From contig JBBFLL010000012.1 in NCBI GenBank assembly GCA_037479045.1, positions 2,355-66,354 on the forward strand: DNA of 64,000 bases, in the 5' to 3' direction. Shown piece by piece: positions 3,610 through 12,395 of the stretch. This stretch comes from Brevinematales bacterium (GTDB lineage: Bacteria; Spirochaetota; Brevinematia; Brevinematales; JAOACQ01). Position numbers and translations under genes: made by a program. The notes beneath the pieces were generated by a model, which ran no database searches, was not told the DNA's origin, and saw only the letters and a program-made list of their open reading frames with translations. The stretch's first letter is position 1; the number at the start of each line of letters is the position of its first letter.

Positions 3610-4348
3610 AATTATAAGGGTTGAAAATCTATACAAAGAATTTGGCACCGAGGTTAAAACAGTCGTTCTTAAAGGTATAAATTTAAGTTTTGAAAAAAAT
3701 GTTTTTACAGCATTAATTGGTCCATCGGGTTCTGGTAAGACAACATTTCTTAACATTATAAGCCTTCTTGAACCCCCTACAAGTGGTAGTTTAATAATAG
3801 ATGGGGTTGATTTTTCGACGAAAAATGTGAACGATAGTTCAGATTACAGGAATGAAAACTTTGGATTTGTTTTTCAATTCCATTATTTACTTCCAGAATT
3901 TACGGTTTATGAGAATATTTTGATGCCTTTCTGGATAGAGAATGTAAAAATAAGTGATAAAATTGAAAAAAAGATTGAAAATCTTATGAAGGAAATAGAT
4001 ATCTGGAAGATAAAGGATAAATATCCTACACAGATTTCTGGGGGTCAACAGCAAAGAACTTCAATAGCAAGGGCTTTAGTAAAAAATCCGAAAATAATAT
4101 TTGCTGATGAACCAACAGGAAATCTTGATAAAGAGACTGGTAATGCTGTGCTTAAGATTATGCTTGAGATGTTAAAAGAATATGGAACAACTTTGATAAT
4201 GGTGACTCACGATAGGGAGATAGCATTGAATGCTGAAAGAGTTGTTGAACTTGTAGATGGAAGGATTTGTAAGTCTTTTATTATCAAAGAAGAAGGGCTT
4301 GAGAAAGCAAAAAAGATTCTTGAGGATAGAACCTGCAGGATGGAGTAA
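3602..4348 (+). CDS. ABC transporter ATP-binding protein (LolD/MacB-like)
   Basis: GPSGSGKT, ISGGQQQR, ADEPTGNLD, VTHD. Confidence 0.95.
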   Translation: MAEIIRVENLYKEFGTEVKTVVLKGINLSFEKNVFTALIGPSGSGKTTFLNIISLLEPPTSGSLIIDGVDFSTKNVNDSSDYRNENFGFVFQFHYLLPEFTVYENILMPFWIENVKISDKIEKKIENLMKEIDIWKIKDKYPTQISGGQQQRTSIARALVKNPKIIFADEPTGNLDKETGNAVLKIMLEMLKEYGTTLIMVTHDREIALNAERVVELVDGRICKSFIIKEEGLEKAKKILEDRTCRME

Positions 4349-4610
4349 TTTTTGAGCTGTTCTATCTAAAAATAAAATAAACTTCCTTTAAATTTATATG
4401 AAATTTTGTGCCTCTGTTTCAGACATTAATTTTTTAAACCACGAAAATCAGTCGAAAGTCGAAAGTCTTGTGTCGACAATGTCTTTAAAAGACAGCCTTT
4501 AAATGGCTAAAGATATTTTATAGAGGTTATTTTTTAGTTCAATATGTTTTGAATCAGAATAAAATGGAGGTTTGGAACAACACAATTATAAAATTTTTTT
4601 TTCAAAAAAC

Positions 4611-4643
4611 TTGACATCCCCCCCCCCCCCCCTGATGTATAAT
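4611..4643 (+). promoter_or_regulatory. Sigma70-type promoter with C15 homopolymer in the spacer (candidate phase-variable promoter)
   Basis: TTGACA 4611-4616, C15 at 4618-4632, TATAAT 4638-4643; spacer 21 bp; AT-rich UP-like tract upstream. Confidence 0.8.
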
Positions 4644-4723
4644 AAAAATAATAAAAGTTTGTGTTAATTTTATAGTCAACAAAGTGTATAAAAAGTTAGA
4701 AATTGGGGGAGTGATAAATAAAA

Positions 4724-5383
4724 ATGGTGCATATTGGTGTTATAGATAGTGGAGTAAACAGAGAGTTTGTTAAATCTTACCATGTTAATATCGAAAGTGC
4801 AGCTATATTTAATATCAATCCATCTAAGTCATGTATTGAAATCATTGAATATGAAAAAGATGATATTGAAAAGTGGAAAAAAGGATTCATAAATCACCTT
4901 TCTGATGAAAGTGGTCATGGAACAGCAGTCTTATCAATTTTATATCAAAAATGTCCGAATGTTTACTTTAGCTTAGCAAAAATTCTGGAAAGTGACAACA
5001 AGGGTTATTCAATATGTCTTGTTGAAGCACTTAATTGGATGATAGACATTGTAAGGCCCAATTTTATGAATATTAGCCTTGGTACAGATGATGAAAGAAT
5101 AAAGAAAAAATTGTACAGACTTACAAAAAAGGCTAAAAAAATGGGGATAAATATTTACTCTGCTATAGGTGGAGAAAAAAGCTATCCAGGTGTTTTTGAT
5201 ACTGTTGTAGGTGTATCGAAAGATAAAGTGGTGAAACAAGATATAAAAAAAGTAGAAATGTTTAATTCTAATGAAAAAGTAAAAATTTTTTGGAATGGTA
5301 ACTGGGAGATTGTGGAAATTGAACCAAGTCTTGCTTGTGCCATGGTTTTGGGGGATACAATTAATCAAAAAGAGGAAAATTAA
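4724..5383 (+). CDS. Short S8 (subtilisin-like) peptidase, no signal peptide
   Basis: IGVIDSG (Asp), DESGHGTAV (His), NISLG, EPSLACA (likely Ser; divergent from GTSMA). Confidence 0.8.
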   Translation: MVHIGVIDSGVNREFVKSYHVNIESAAIFNINPSKSCIEIIEYEKDDIEKWKKGFINHLSDESGHGTAVLSILYQKCPNVYFSLAKILESDNKGYSICLVEALNWMIDIVRPNFMNISLGTDDERIKKKLYRLTKKAKKMGINIYSAIGGEKSYPGVFDTVVGVSKDKVVKQDIKKVEMFNSNEKVKIFWNGNWEIVEIEPSLACAMVLGDTINQKEEN

Positions 5384-5384
5384 A

Positions 5385-6440
5385 ATGAAAATTGCGGTAT
5401 ATTCTATTTGCAGAAATGAAGAGAAGAACGTAGAAAGATGGGATAATTCTATTAGAGAAGCGGATGGGATATTTGTTGTAGATACGGGTTCTACAGATAA
5501 TTCAGTAAATTTGCTTAGAAAGTTTGGTGTGGAGGTAGAAAATTACAAATATTCTTTTTTTAGATTTGATTGGGCAAGAAATCAGGCACTAGAAATGATA
5601 CCTAGAGATTTTGATGTTTGTGTATCAATTGATTTTGATGAAGTAATGCCTTCAGGATGGACAGAAATAATAAAAGAAAAAATGAAAACTAATGTAAAAA
5701 GGCTTTCTTATATTCAAAGGACATTTCACGATGGGGTTTTTATTCAGGATGTTGTAAGAGATTTAATTCATAGAAATAATGGAGAATATAAATGGATGTT
5801 TCCGGTGCATGAACTTTTATGGCCAATATCTGGTGATATCAAAAATGATAAGATTGAAGATAGTGGCATAATTGTGAATCATTATAGAACACAAAAAGAA
5901 ACGAGATATAATTATTTATCTTTGCTTCAAGTTGGAGTTGCAGAGTTTCCGACTCATCCACGTGCATGGCATTATTTGGGCAGGGAATATATGTATTATG
6001 GTAGAAAAGAAGAGGCAATTCAAGCATTAAAAATGGGATTAAACTTTCCTGGTTGGAATGTGGAACAAGCCGAATCAATGAGATTTTTGGCATTAATGGT
6101 TGATAACGTAGATGAAAAGCTTTCTTGGTTGTATCGTGCTATAAGTTTAGACCCAAATAGAAAAGAACACTGGGTGAATTTAGCAATGATTTATTTTGAG
6201 CAAAAAAATTGGTGGGGAGTTGTCTTTGCTATAAATCAAGCCATTTCTATTTCAAAACCTTCTGATTATATTACTTATGAATTTGTCTCGGGTTTTCTTC
6301 CATATGATTTAGTAGCTTTTGCATATTACAATCTTGGACTTTATGATATGGCCTACACTATGGGACAAAAAGCGATTGAGTTCCAACCAGATAATGTTGA
6401 GCTAAGAAAAAAACTAAGAATGTATAAAAAAAAACAATAA
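5385..6440 (+). CDS. GT2 glycosyltransferase with C-terminal TPR repeats (SunS-like architecture)
   Basis: True start probably ATG 5385 (MKIAVYSICRNEE); VDTGSTD, FDWARN, DFDE (DxD), VHE motifs; TPR helices. Confidence 0.88.
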   Translation: MKIAVYSICRNEEKNVERWDNSIREADGIFVVDTGSTDNSVNLLRKFGVEVENYKYSFFRFDWARNQALEMIPRDFDVCVSIDFDEVMPSGWTEIIKEKMKTNVKRLSYIQRTFHDGVFIQDVVRDLIHRNNGEYKWMFPVHELLWPISGDIKNDKIEDSGIIVNHYRTQKETRYNYLSLLQVGVAEFPTHPRAWHYLGREYMYYGRKEEAIQALKMGLNFPGWNVEQAESMRFLALMVDNVDEKLSWLYRAISLDPNRKEHWVNLAMIYFEQKNWWGVVFAINQAISISKPSDYITYEFVSGFLPYDLVAFAYYNLGLYDMAYTMGQKAIEFQPDNVELRKKLRMYKKKQ

Positions 6441-6478
6441 AAATCCCAATATCGGGGAAATAAAAAAGGAGGAAATGT

Positions 6479-6748
6479 ATGTTGGTAAGAGTTGTCAAAT
6501 ATGCACTTGCTAAGTTGGTGAAAAAGAGTGTATGTGGTTACTACACTGGTGGTTCATCGTCTGGTGGTGGTTATTCAAGCATGGGCTGGGGTGGCGGAAG
6601 TGGAAGTTATGGAACTGGCTTTTTTGGTGGTTCTTTTCAGAGTGGTGGTTCAATAGGAAGTCCCGGTGTACCAGCAGGAGTTAATCCTGGAGGTTCTCCA
6701 TTTACAGGTAGTGGTATTATGGGTAATGCTTCTGGAACTGGAAGATAG
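6479..6748 (+). CDS. Gly/Ser-rich small peptide, candidate RiPP/bacteriocin precursor
   Basis: Strong RBS AAGGAGG; 20-aa basic leader ending VCG, then 69 aa with 26 Gly, 14 Ser, 4 Thr; no acidic residues. Confidence 0.72.
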   Translation: MLVRVVKYALAKLVKKSVCGYYTGGSSSGGGYSSMGWGGGSGSYGTGFFGGSFQSGGSIGSPGVPAGVNPGGSPFTGSGIMGNASGTGR

Positions 6749-6779
6749 CATTCCTTAATTTATTATTACAAAATTTGCA

Positions 6780-6929
6780 GGAACTGCCCAAAAGTATAGT
6801 GCATTTTTACACAAAATGAATAAAATGTATTAAGATTTGGTTAATTTTGTAATTTGTTGGCGGAATTTCGAGATCTAACTAAAAAATATGCTTTCAAGGA
6901 TAACTAAAATAAAGTTTTTTGGTAGTTCC
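6780..6929. mobile_element. 150-bp MITE-like element
   Basis: Terminal IRs GGAACTGCCCAAAA / TTTTTGGTAGTTCC flanked by TGCA on both sides (6776-6779, 6930-6933); non-coding. Confidence 0.6.
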
Positions 6930-6988
6930 TGCAGAGGATAGATTTAAAAAAATTAATATAGTTAGGAGTAAAACTTCTATTTTAATTC

Positions 6989-7017
6989 TTGAGAAAGTTT
7001 TGTGAAATATTTATAAT
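6989..7017 (+). promoter_or_regulatory. Sigma70-type promoter for the 7056 gene
   Basis: TTGAGA-17 bp-TATAAT, followed by AAGGAGG RBS. Confidence 0.6.
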
Positions 7018-7055
7018 TAATTACAAATTTATTAGTTAAAGGAGGAAAATTAGAT

Positions 7056-8465
7056 ATGAAAAATTTCATAATCTGCTTTTTGCTCGTCTTGAGTTCAAAA
7101 CTTTTTTCTGCCGTTAACATTTCATCTAACATCTCAATTGGTCCGGACTATCGTGTTGAGCTTGTTGGCATAGTGTTTGCCATTGCAACTTGTGATGATG
7201 ATTATTTCAAGGAAGAAAGGTATCTTACGGAGGTGAATAAATATTTTACACCTTATAAAAATCACCCTGTTATAAGTTTTATAAGGGAGGTAATTTCCAA
7301 TAGAATTAAGCTTTACAATCAACCTGAATTTGAATATTGGGCGAAATTAAGTGTTCTTTCAGAAATTTACACTATAATTTTGAACTACTCTGAGGATGAG
7401 AAATTATTATTAACAGATAAAAGATATTTCTACGTTAGAATACAGGATGCAAGTGTTATCAATCAAAAAAAATTAATTACTCTTTTAAAAGATTTTATAA
7501 AAGTATCAAAATATGAAAATTTCTATTCGAATGTGGCTTTAGTTCACTACAAGCCAAGAATAGACGAAATAACCAACAAAATCGATATTGAAAAGATTGT
7601 AGTAAATAATGAAAAATTTTTTGGAGAAAATGCTAAATATACAAGAATAATACTTTCGTATATTATCTATGGTTTCAGTGGTTTAAGTTTATTTTCTATT
7701 TCGGATGGTGTGATTGAATATAATTCACCAATCATACTTGTAAAAGAAAAAAGCTTTTATCCACTTTTATCAGAAGAGCTTTTTTACCATGAACTGGCCC
7801 ATCCATTCTTTAATTTTTCAATGGTTGAAAATTATTACAAATATGTGGATTTGTTCAGGACAAAGATAGGTGAGTATAGCGAAAGTATCAACATAGCTTA
7901 CGAAATTTTGAGAAACAATTATAATGAAAATACACAAAAGATTTTGTTTAGATACTATTTACTTGATGGATTTATTTCTGTAAAAGAGTTTTATGAATTA
8001 CTTATGAAATACCAGACTGAAAGAGATAAATATAAGACCTTTAATGAATTTTTTAAAGAGATACCAGAATATTTTGCTAAATTATCTGATAATGATATTG
8101 GTTATAAATTAACAGTAGGTACTTCTCTTACAATGAAAATAAGATATAATGAAATGGATTATAAAAAAGGTATTGCCATCTTTAAGGTTTTTTCCGATAT
8201 AAAATTACTTCAAGAAGGGGATATTATTTTAAATATTAATGGTAGAGATGCAAGGGAAAGATTTGCTTTTCACGAAGAATGGAGTAAGTCAAAAGAGGTT
8301 TCGATTGAAGTCTTAAAAAAAGATGGTGAAATAAAGAAAATAAAGTTAAATCCACAGGATGTGGAAATGATATGTTTAAAATATTCTCAAAAACATAATA
8401 TTTTTCAGGCCTTTTGCGTCATTAAAGATAAAATTTATGGCAACTGGTATAGAACTTTTGATTAA
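7056..8465 (+). CDS. Secreted DUF4932-like protein with HExxH zinc motif and C-terminal PDZ-like segment
   Basis: Signal peptide; DYRVELVGIV N-terminus; YHELAHPF; LQEGDIILNING PDZ-like motif. Confidence 0.6.
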   Translation: MKNFIICFLLVLSSKLFSAVNISSNISIGPDYRVELVGIVFAIATCDDDYFKEERYLTEVNKYFTPYKNHPVISFIREVISNRIKLYNQPEFEYWAKLSVLSEIYTIILNYSEDEKLLLTDKRYFYVRIQDASVINQKKLITLLKDFIKVSKYENFYSNVALVHYKPRIDEITNKIDIEKIVVNNEKFFGENAKYTRIILSYIIYGFSGLSLFSISDGVIEYNSPIILVKEKSFYPLLSEELFYHELAHPFFNFSMVENYYKYVDLFRTKIGEYSESINIAYEILRNNYNENTQKILFRYYLLDGFISVKEFYELLMKYQTERDKYKTFNEFFKEIPEYFAKLSDNDIGYKLTVGTSLTMKIRYNEMDYKKGIAIFKVFSDIKLLQEGDIILNINGRDARERFAFHEEWSKSKEVSIEVLKKDGEIKKIKLNPQDVEMICLKYSQKHNIFQAFCVIKDKIYGNWYRTFD

Positions 8466-10754: not shown

Positions 10755-12395
10755 ATGTCTCTTTTATGGCCAGAAGATAAAAAAGAATTCATAAAAATAG
10801 ACGAATCAGTTTTTGATGATCTCGAACTTGAAAAAATCATAACTGAAATATCAAAAAACCATTATGAAAGAAACCTTGTAAGAGAATTTTTTACCCTTCT
10901 TCCTGTTGATGAGAGAGTTATTAAATACAGACAGGAGATTTTAGATGATCTTTCAAACTCAGAAAAGTTGACCTTTGAACTTGAAGATCTCCTTACTGAT
11001 TTTGAAACTATAACTACAAAAAATATTTACAGAAATGAAGATGCCTTTTACGAATTTGTAGATAATGTTTGTGAACTCGAAAGTTTTACAAAAGTTATAA
11101 AACGTCTCAAAAAGATATTTTCTGAAAACAAAATTAACTCTGAAGGACTTAAAAAATTAAAAAGCAAAATAGAAGAAATATCACTCTCAGAAGAATTCAA
11201 AAATCTTGAGTCTGAAATATTTAATATTGCAGATAAAATGAGAGGAGTAAAGAGTATAGCTATAGGAATAAATCTTGATAATAAAATGCGTCCGGCAGAG
11301 GCGGCCCTTATTGCTGTAAACAAGGAAAAATATATCGATCCATCTCAATTTTTCCTTGGGAAACTTTTTTCAAACAAAAGTGAAAAACCGCTTGTTTCTA
11401 TAGCCAAGCTTCATACACCGCCACTGAAGGAAGGATATGGAGGAGTTAAACTTGACCCTGACATTTATGGTTATGCAATAGAGCCAATCTTACTTCCGTT
11501 GTTTAATGATCTTCATAAGATTACTGAAAAAATATATAACAAATTAAGTAAAAGTTTAAAAAATTATAAGATTGACACTTCATTTTTAAAAAGTTTATAT
11601 TCCGAGCTTGTTATTTATTTGAGGATTGCAAGATTTATTAAGAAATATAGAGAAAGCGGACTTAATTTTACAAAACCAGAAATTATGGATAAAGGTAAGA
11701 AAATTATCGAAGTAAAAGATTCTTACAATATAAATCTTGCAATAAATATGTATTACAAGAAAAGCCTTGATGAACTTGTCTTCAATGACATTCAGATTAA
11801 TCAGGAGGAGGGAATAATAATATTAACAGGGCCCAATCAGGGAGGAAAAACAGTTTACACACAGAGTATTGGTATTGTTCAGATATTTTTTCAACTTGGG
11901 ATGTTTGTCCCCGGAAGTGAGGCAAGATTGAGCCCTGTTGATGGCATTTTTACACATTTTCAAAAAGAGGAAAATATTAACACAGGAACCGGTAGATTCG
12001 GCGATGAGGCTATCAGAATTAGAGAGATATTTGAAAGGGCCTCAGAAAATACTTTGATACTTATGAATGAGCCTTTTTCAAGCACAAATCCATCGGAGAG
12101 TATTTACTTACTGAAAGAAGTTTTAAAGGCTTTTGCAATGTTTGGAGCAAGAGTGGTGGTTGCCACTCATTTTCACGAGATTGCAGAAAACATTGAAGAT
12201 ATACGAGGCAAAACAATAGCTGTAAGCTATATTGCTACTGTTAAGAAAGAAAATGAAGATTTCCACAAAAGATTATATAAGGTTGTAAAATCAAAACCTG
12301 AAGGTAAAAGCTATGCAATCGAACTTGCAAAAAAGTATGGACTTGATTTTGAGGAACTGAAAAATATTATAAGTAAAAATAACAGAAAAGATTAA
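10755..12395 (+). CDS. MutS-family ATPase-domain protein lacking a mismatch-binding domain
   Basis: TGPNQGGKT, DGIFTHF, TGRF, LILMNEPFSST, ATHFHE. Confidence 0.85.
   Translation: MSLLWPEDKKEFIKIDESVFDDLELEKIITEISKNHYERNLVREFFTLLPVDERVIKYRQEILDDLSNSEKLTFELEDLLTDFETITTKNIYRNEDAFYEFVDNVCELESFTKVIKRLKKIFSENKINSEGLKKLKSKIEEISLSEEFKNLESEIFNIADKMRGVKSIAIGINLDNKMRPAEAALIAVNKEKYIDPSQFFLGKLFSNKSEKPLVSIAKLHTPPLKEGYGGVKLDPDIYGYAIEPILLPLFNDLHKITEKIYNKLSKSLKNYKIDTSFLKSLYSELVIYLRIARFIKKYRESGLNFTKPEIMDKGKKIIEVKDSYNINLAINMYYKKSLDELVFNDIQINQEEGIIILTGPNQGGKTVYTQSIGIVQIFFQLGMFVPGSEARLSPVDGIFTHFQKEENINTGTGRFGDEAIRIREIFERASENTLILMNEPFSSTNPSESIYLLKEVLKAFAMFGARVVVATHFHEIAENIEDIRGKTIAVSYIATVKKENEDFHKRLYKVVKSKPEGKSYAIELAKKYGLDFEELKNIISKNNRKD

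Follow-up and report, generated by a model that had tools for sequence, protein, structure and literature searches.

A length-variable poly-C tract in the promoter spacer of a predicted peptide-modification operon of an environmental Brevinematales spirochete

The placement of a homopolymer in the spacer of a promoter is a design proven for tp0126 of Treponema pallidum and porA of Neisseria meningitidis; in tp0126 a poly-G tract lies between the -35 and -10 boxes and transcription is best at a 17-nt spacer, and in opc, where the C-tract and the -35 region overlap, a regulator is believed to mediate its effect (passages of PMC7864442). Most documented cases of such spacer-tract phase variation concern surface antigens, in bacteria that live with a host. 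In a literature search with most subscription journals outside its range, no paper was found in which such a promoter heads a bacteriocin or biosynthetic cluster. Two further described systems concern peptide maturation. The hallmarks of glycocins are nested disulfides, a C39 peptidase-transporter and a thiol-disulfide oxidoreductase (excerpt of PMC12457901), and QhpE removes the leader from its modified peptide by cytoplasmic cleavage (excerpt of PMC7876137).

The locus described here belongs to an environmental Brevinematales lineage. The PurA protein encoded near it, in the same 64 kb, has its top match (90%) in a protein named Brevinematales bacterium and another match (72%) named Brevinematia, which marks the host as a spirochete. 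It lies in a stretch of 64,000 nucleotides, hereafter the window, which is contig C12:2355-66354 of an assembly of 2,351,633 bases (98% complete). Contigs are always named as such below, whereas C15 or G8 gives a tract length, and G001 or X1 designates a genome or a sequencing run. What is added here is the genome-wide panel of such promoters, a C12 allele, a G8/G9 pair in a congener, a shared cassette slot and a bimodal spacer survey.

Promoter anatomy and natural tract lengths

On the + strand, the -35 hexamer TTGACA (4611..4616) is followed by a T (4617), the poly-C tract C15 (4618..4632), the bases TGATG (4633-4637) and the -10 hexamer TATAAT (4638..4643), which leaves a spacer of 21 bp. 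This arrangement, described in an earlier note on the same DNA, was recovered on re-reading, as was the observation that the tract is the only long C-run of the AT-rich window (31% GC), where it is the sole C/G run of at least 7 in 64 kb; the calculation that C11 would give a 17-bp spacer is also correct. Perfect TTGACA-N14-25-TATAAT pairs number 91 in the genome, with 17 bp in 41 of them, 16-18 bp in 63 and 21 bp in six. Because these pairs peak at 17 bp, the two hexamers can be taken as the promoter consensus of the organism, and a spacer of 21 bp lies off its own optimum. The -10 box has no extended -10 TG at -15/-14 and is therefore predicted to rely on its spacing from the -35 box; rescue of the 21-bp spacer by an extended -10 was rejected on the same ground. 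The A/T-tract region immediately 5' of the -35 box (4590..4610, + strand) may resemble an UP element, and similar A/T tracts lie 5' of the sister promoters on contigs C2, C5 and C25, described below.

The boxes at 4611-4643 would form a working promoter, with transcription expected to start near 4650. No second + strand promoter with a 16-18-bp spacer was found in 4300-4760, and the poly-C promoter is the sole consensus promoter of its intergenic region, in support of the earlier reading. An antisense promoter-like site (4667-4639) is no more than chance would give (2 such sites against 2.0 expected). MerR-type promoters carry a palindromic operator inside a spacer of 19-20 bp; a long-spacer promoter of this type was rejected here, as the spacer is poly-C and none of the seven inverted repeats in 4340-4730 touches the promoter. 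Pieces of the upstream segment 4394-4568 recur at five other intergenic-looking sites (72-84% identity), forming a small dispersed repeat.

The length of the tract is not invariant in natural populations. Eleven runs from eight studies contain at least half of the sampled words of the stretch, under the labels sediment, soil, microbial mat, oil facility, hot springs and unspecified metagenome; nine rows with a share below 0.5, including the RNA run X20 (0.06), were left out. Four runs of four studies were aligned to 4300-5000, as contigs and not as reads; further runs that contain the stretch include X3, X9, X10 and X11. The tract allele is readable in one of the four. Run X2 has C12, and hence an 18-bp spacer, on one 14.7-kb contig that extends across the 701-bp stretch at depth 27; it differs from the window by three bases missing at 4618 and by one other change in 698 bp. 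The other three runs are interrupted at the tract. In X1, possibly the source of the assembly, one contig stops after 14 C's and another begins with 15 C's, a break that fits mixed tract lengths in the reads, whether biological or technical; X6 has no cover across 4572-4648; and in X8 one contig begins inside the tract, which is only partly readable there. The difference between C15 and C12 is one between populations. Because the X1 contigs break in the tract and Illumina indel errors climb in homopolymer tracts longer than 14 (excerpt of PMC8808543), the existence of the tract is more secure than its exact length of 15, which may be off by at least one base. A pattern scan of JGI metagenomes, where near-identical records may be omitted, gave 0 matches to the exact promoter. 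Two further contigs of X8 differ in other ways: one departs from the window sequence at 4601, just 5' of the -35 box (an insertion or another cassette), and one carries a related promoter, aligned to window 4579-4631 over 53 bp with 5 differences and with an apparent spacer of 19, whose flanks are absent from the assembly.

Homopolymer-spacer promoters in the genome and beyond

No C/G run anywhere in the assembly exceeds C15, and the next in length are C11, G9, C8 and G8; extrapolation from the counts of 3-7-base runs gives a genome-wide expectation of 2e-5 for runs of at least 15. All five C/G runs of at least 8 lie inside -35/-10 spacers, which make up 0.44% of the genome, and the shorter runs inside promoter-like spacers amount to none of 15 seven-base runs, none of 101 six-base runs and 1 of 688 five-base runs. 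This confinement of long runs backs the promoter switch proposed in the earlier note. The sister promoters are located at contig C5:31376 (C11, 21-bp spacer), heading an AdoHcyase-like/HD/GT2/ABC-exporter operon; at contig C2:89449 (- strand; C9, 19-bp spacer), heading a radical-SAM, acyl-carrier-like and ketosynthase-like cluster, in which the last two calls come from reading the sequence alone; at contig C3:83729 (C8, 20 bp to TAAAAT) and contig C19:127 (G8, 16-bp spacer), each heading a lipoprotein-like gene; and at contig C25:17312 (interrupted tract C5-T-C4, 15-bp spacer), heading a sactipeptide-like cluster. A 17-bp spacer occurs in none of the six homopolymer-spacer promoters, 4611-4643 included, and predicted biosynthetic operons lie behind four of them; none of the radical-SAM matches comes up to its family cut-off.

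The sactipeptide-like cluster (contig C25:17425-19050, L175) has a 47-aa Cys-containing peptide followed by a radical-SAM/SPASM enzyme similar to AlbA (E 8e-51, under its cut-off), peptidases of the S8 and S9 families, an ATPase of MutS type and an ABC transporter. The genome encodes a MutS-domain-V ATPase that resembles KamC, with a score under the cut-off, as two close paralogues, one at 10755-12395 of the window and one in this cluster. The lipoprotein-like gene behind C8 (contig C3:83823-85204, L178) is apparently frameshift-split into pieces of 256 and 141 aa.

At the contig C19 promoter the tract is G8 (16 bp) in the present genome and one base longer, G9 (17 bp), in the congener G001, with letters identical from above the -35 through the -10 box and 83% identity over 551 bp. 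Its cassette is found elsewhere in G001, and the other five of the six were not found intact in the congeners searched. For the cassettes on contigs C2, C3, C5 and C25, no intact orthologue was found in five congener genomes with the queries used, and G002 holds a broken remnant of the first gene of the contig C5 cassette, without its promoter. When 4300-6800 was compared as DNA with 40 relatives, only short matches appeared, and the orthologous operon was not found. The six promoters all head putative accessory cassettes. The slot behind the ABC ATPase of the window is occupied by the poly-C cassette here, by a poly-G lipoprotein cassette directly behind the orthologous ATPase (91%) in G001 (L219, G001:C119:805-1654), and by neither in G002 (L220, G002:C57); it is a variable cassette site, or hot spot, with unrelated homopolymer-promoter cassettes in two species.

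A survey with the pattern TTGACA-C9+-TATAAT covered 22 of 64 parts (about one third) of a species-representative collection and gave 122 loci (L028-L149) in many phyla, many of them in animal-gut Clostridia and Mucispirillum. The spacers are bimodal, with 59 at 15-16 bp, 12 at 17-18 and 35 at 19-20. Spacers of 17-18 bp account for 12 of 118 poly-C loci versus 46 of the 91 ordinary promoters of the present genome (Fisher p 1e-10, a value overstated by non-independent kin and by a control of one genome, without a poly-G or short-run control), suggesting that poly-C promoters steer clear of this optimum and may be held as majority-off alleles. One genome contains two copies with the same flanks and tracts of C9 and C12 (L052, L087). 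From the 80 loci whose flanks are long, 78 first downstream proteins were compared with Pfam: 50 are without a match, most of the matches fall on surface or repeat domains, and a single protein is a RiPP enzyme, a lanthipeptide synthetase. The spacer poly-C architecture is common, and biosynthetic targets are a minority. The lanthipeptide synthetase (RamC_N, kinase, LanC-like) lies behind a C9 spacer promoter of 19 bp in L049 (CAZJJV010000020.1, Saccharibacteria), a locus that is a putative second RiPP cluster of this promoter design.

The predicted operon and its product

The cassette has a MacAB-type (HlyD/MacB) ABC system upstream and DUF4932 downstream, and the reading frames of its three genes are intact, each with a ribosome site. 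The first gene (4724..5383, + strand) encodes a predicted leader peptidase of 219 aa, QhpE-like and of subtilisin (S8) fold, in which a signal peptide is not evident. Its Pfam S8 match is below cut-off (E 0.0017), and its best NCBIfam match is QhpE (NF049966; E 2e-16, 60 bits against a cut-off of 165). The model is confident (pLDDT 87.9) and matches S8 proteases in Foldseek (E 2e-8, TM 0.67); D8 and H65 are kept in all six aligned homologues and S202 in five. The family is small, with 12 representatives at E up to 1e-30. Homologues are present in 4 of 40 relatives, none behind a poly-C promoter, and in two of these four they head radical-SAM RiPP clusters: in G006 and G008 the cluster headed by the homologue comprises three radical-SAM enzymes together with transporters and a Gly/Ser/Cys precursor of 79-82 aa. 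G011 carries two copies, both without such neighbours. Twenty S8-relative loci were tested (19 of 21, plus L154), and a radical-SAM neighbour was found in four and the present glycosyltransferase in none. The clusters L171 (G008:C2) and L173 (G006:C3) look undescribed, and their precursor is rich in Gly, Ser, Cys and Thr. The protein P0122 shares 93% identity with window 4724-5383 up to residue 73 and diverges strongly after it, a mosaic allele hinting that different cassettes may be swapped behind the same promoter and gene start.

The second gene (5385..6440, + strand) encodes a 351-aa protein with GT2 and TPR domains (Pfam), predicted to be a peptide/protein O- or S-glycosyltransferase. It is distantly similar to GmaR (PDB, E 8e-7) and SunS (PDB, E 8e-5) and has 789 homologues at about 40% identity, and no full-length homologue was found in the 40 relatives, nor relatives in viral contigs. 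The glycocin glycosyltransferase model of NCBIfam does not match it at E 0.1. The third gene is an 89-aa ORF (6479..6748, + strand) with a strong ribosome site. A basic N-terminus of 19 aa is followed by 70 aa with 27 Gly, 14 Ser and 4 Thr, and the whole contains one Cys. It has no family match in Pfam or NCBIfam and no feature match in the ESM Atlas, and its model (pLDDT 0.30) renders structure matches meaningless. It is a candidate precursor peptide and substrate. Downstream of it, a single-copy element of about 160 nt closed by an 18-bp inverted repeat (6774..6935, + strand; z -3.28, 1 of 200 shuffles as good) is possibly an mRNA-stabilising or terminating structure; there is no Rfam match in 4300-7100.

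Candidates for a short precursor, a modifying enzyme and a leader peptidase, the set looked for in a RiPP operon in the broad sense, are contiguous here. The label 'RiPP-like' given earlier is reasonable in view of the radical-SAM RiPP clusters headed by relatives of the peptidase, whereas the likeness of the leader of the 89-aa ORF to the precursors of G006 and G008 does not reach significance (in 2000 shuffles, 232 and 1426 score as high). Expression of the operon would lead to glycosylation of the peptide by the GT2-TPR enzyme, at Ser/Thr or at its single Cys, and to removal of its basic N-terminus by the QhpE-like protease. A peptidase-trimmed, Gly/Ser-rich glycopeptide, perhaps exported via the upstream MacAB-type system, has about an even chance of being the product.

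Proposed tract-length switching, rival readings and described systems

The poly-C tract is probably a slipped-strand promoter dial of the porA/tp0126 type that would leave the operon low or silent at C15 and switch it on around C10-C12, a reading to which a probability of roughly 0.7 is assigned. Replication slippage would add or drop C's, shift the length of the spacer and so alter the fit of sigma-70 RNA polymerase: C15 corresponds to 21 bp, C12 (X2) to 18 bp and C11 to 17 bp, and the operon would be on in the alleles C10-C12 (16-18 bp). The on/off effect and the reversibility of tract changes are predicted. In favour of the dial are the five of five long runs placed in spacers, the C12 allele in X2 and the G8/G9 pair on contig C19, and the variable tract, the promoter placement and the C11 arithmetic of the earlier note are upheld. 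Counted against it are the genes for MutS and MutL, which in general lower slippage rates, and the distance of three to five single steps between C15 and a 16-18-bp spacer.

A rival reading is a slow tuning knob: drift of the tract length from strain to strain would fix expression at a level particular to each strain, as in a strong promoter that has been de-tuned, and reversible switching inside a population would be infrequent. The length differences are between populations and between species, the mismatch repair genes are intact, and the interrupted sister tract on contig C25 would be stable. However, the X1 contigs that end at C14 and begin at C15 are what mixed lengths predict, with sequencing error also possible. 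Campylobacter differs in repair. The pure C15 is nevertheless far above the 8-11 lengths of often-switching Campylobacter tracts (excerpt of PMC8355987), and slow drift is considered unlikely. It is rather less probable still that the switch is real and bypassed, with the cassette read through from the HlyD/MacB ABC operon, or that the cassette is a decaying island silenced by tract expansion. The ABC operon ends at 4348. Because no + strand terminator-like site was found between it and the promoter (4300-4760, in a scan blind to Rho-dependent termination), read-through is possible and could blunt the switch, and the predicted fold of the intergenic RNA is no more stable than that of shuffled sequences (z -0.82). 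The slot that is filled differently in G001 and empty of a cassette in G002 points the same way, as does a cluster without the radical-SAM genes and exporter found beside the peptidase in G006 and G008. Against bypass or decay stand the 375 bp from 4348 to the first gene of the cassette, Rho-dependent termination being outside the scan, together with the three intact frames and their ribosome sites and two hexamers that are still perfect.

Least probable is an artefact, in which the length differences come from sequencing or assembly and the C-rich spacer is in fact constant, acting for instance as a protein-binding or template-strand G-quadruplex element. The rise of Illumina indels beyond 14 and the break of three of the four runs at the tract fit this explanation, and G15 would be a candidate for a three-tier quadruplex, for which its length is barely sufficient. 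Yet the X2 consensus is off by three bases at depth 27, beyond typical stutter, the G8/G9 difference on contig C19 lies in the reliably read range, and an artefact cannot explain why five of five long runs are inside spacers.

The mechanism of the slipped-strand dial is known and classical; the twist appears to be a non-pathogen that applies it to several biosynthetic cassettes. The proposed panel comprises the glycopeptide-like operon, the sactipeptide-like cluster of contig C25, the radical-SAM/ACP/ketosynthase cluster of contig C2, the AdoHcyase-like/HD/GT2/ABC operon of contig C5 and two lipoprotein cassettes. More speculatively, and with odds well short of even, independently slipping promoters would allow a free-living spirochete to randomise its chemical arsenal, with off-optimum majority alleles and rare producers of each product, as a general 'default-off' contingency design that also includes a new class of disulfide-free, Gly/Ser-rich, S8-matured glycopeptide. 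If the dial is confirmed, the locus would allow bet-hedging or division of labour to be tested cleanly for specialised metabolism; silent-looking clusters may be on in a shorter-tract minority, and C11 would be the allele of choice for expression.

The operon resembles glycocin clusters (sublancin SunA/SunS/SunT/BdbAB; glycocin F; thermoglycocin) in that a GT2-TPR enzyme weakly similar to SunS adjoins a short peptide gene. By contrast, the peptide has one Cys and hence no nested disulfides, and an S8 peptidase takes the place of the C39 peptidase-transporter. A glycocin cluster was rejected on the one Cys in 89 aa and the lack of a C39 peptidase-ABC transporter and of thiol-disulfide oxidoreductases. 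With QhpE of the qhp operon the peptidase shares the form of a stand-alone S8 protease of about 220 aa, but its NF049966 score is far under the cut-off, the operon contains neither radical-SAM nor amine dehydrogenase genes, and qhp genes are absent nearby; assignment as a QhpE equivalog was rejected on the score and on the absent operon context. At the promoter, the similarity to porA of N. meningitidis, which has a poly-G tract, lies in a spacer length set, in porA, by slipped-strand mispairing (passages of PMC7864442 and PMC5084427). In contrast to opc, the poly-C lies wholly between intact boxes, and the targets of porA and opc are surface antigens under immune selection. T. pallidum tp0126, also of a spirochete, shares the homopolymer within the promoter spacer. 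Its tract is a coding-strand poly-G, whereas that of the Brevinematales bacterium, which is known from environmental metagenomes only, is a poly-C with an effect predicted from sequence; and tp0126 specifies an outer-membrane antigen, whereas the poly-C promoter heads a predicted cytoplasmic peptide-maturation operon.
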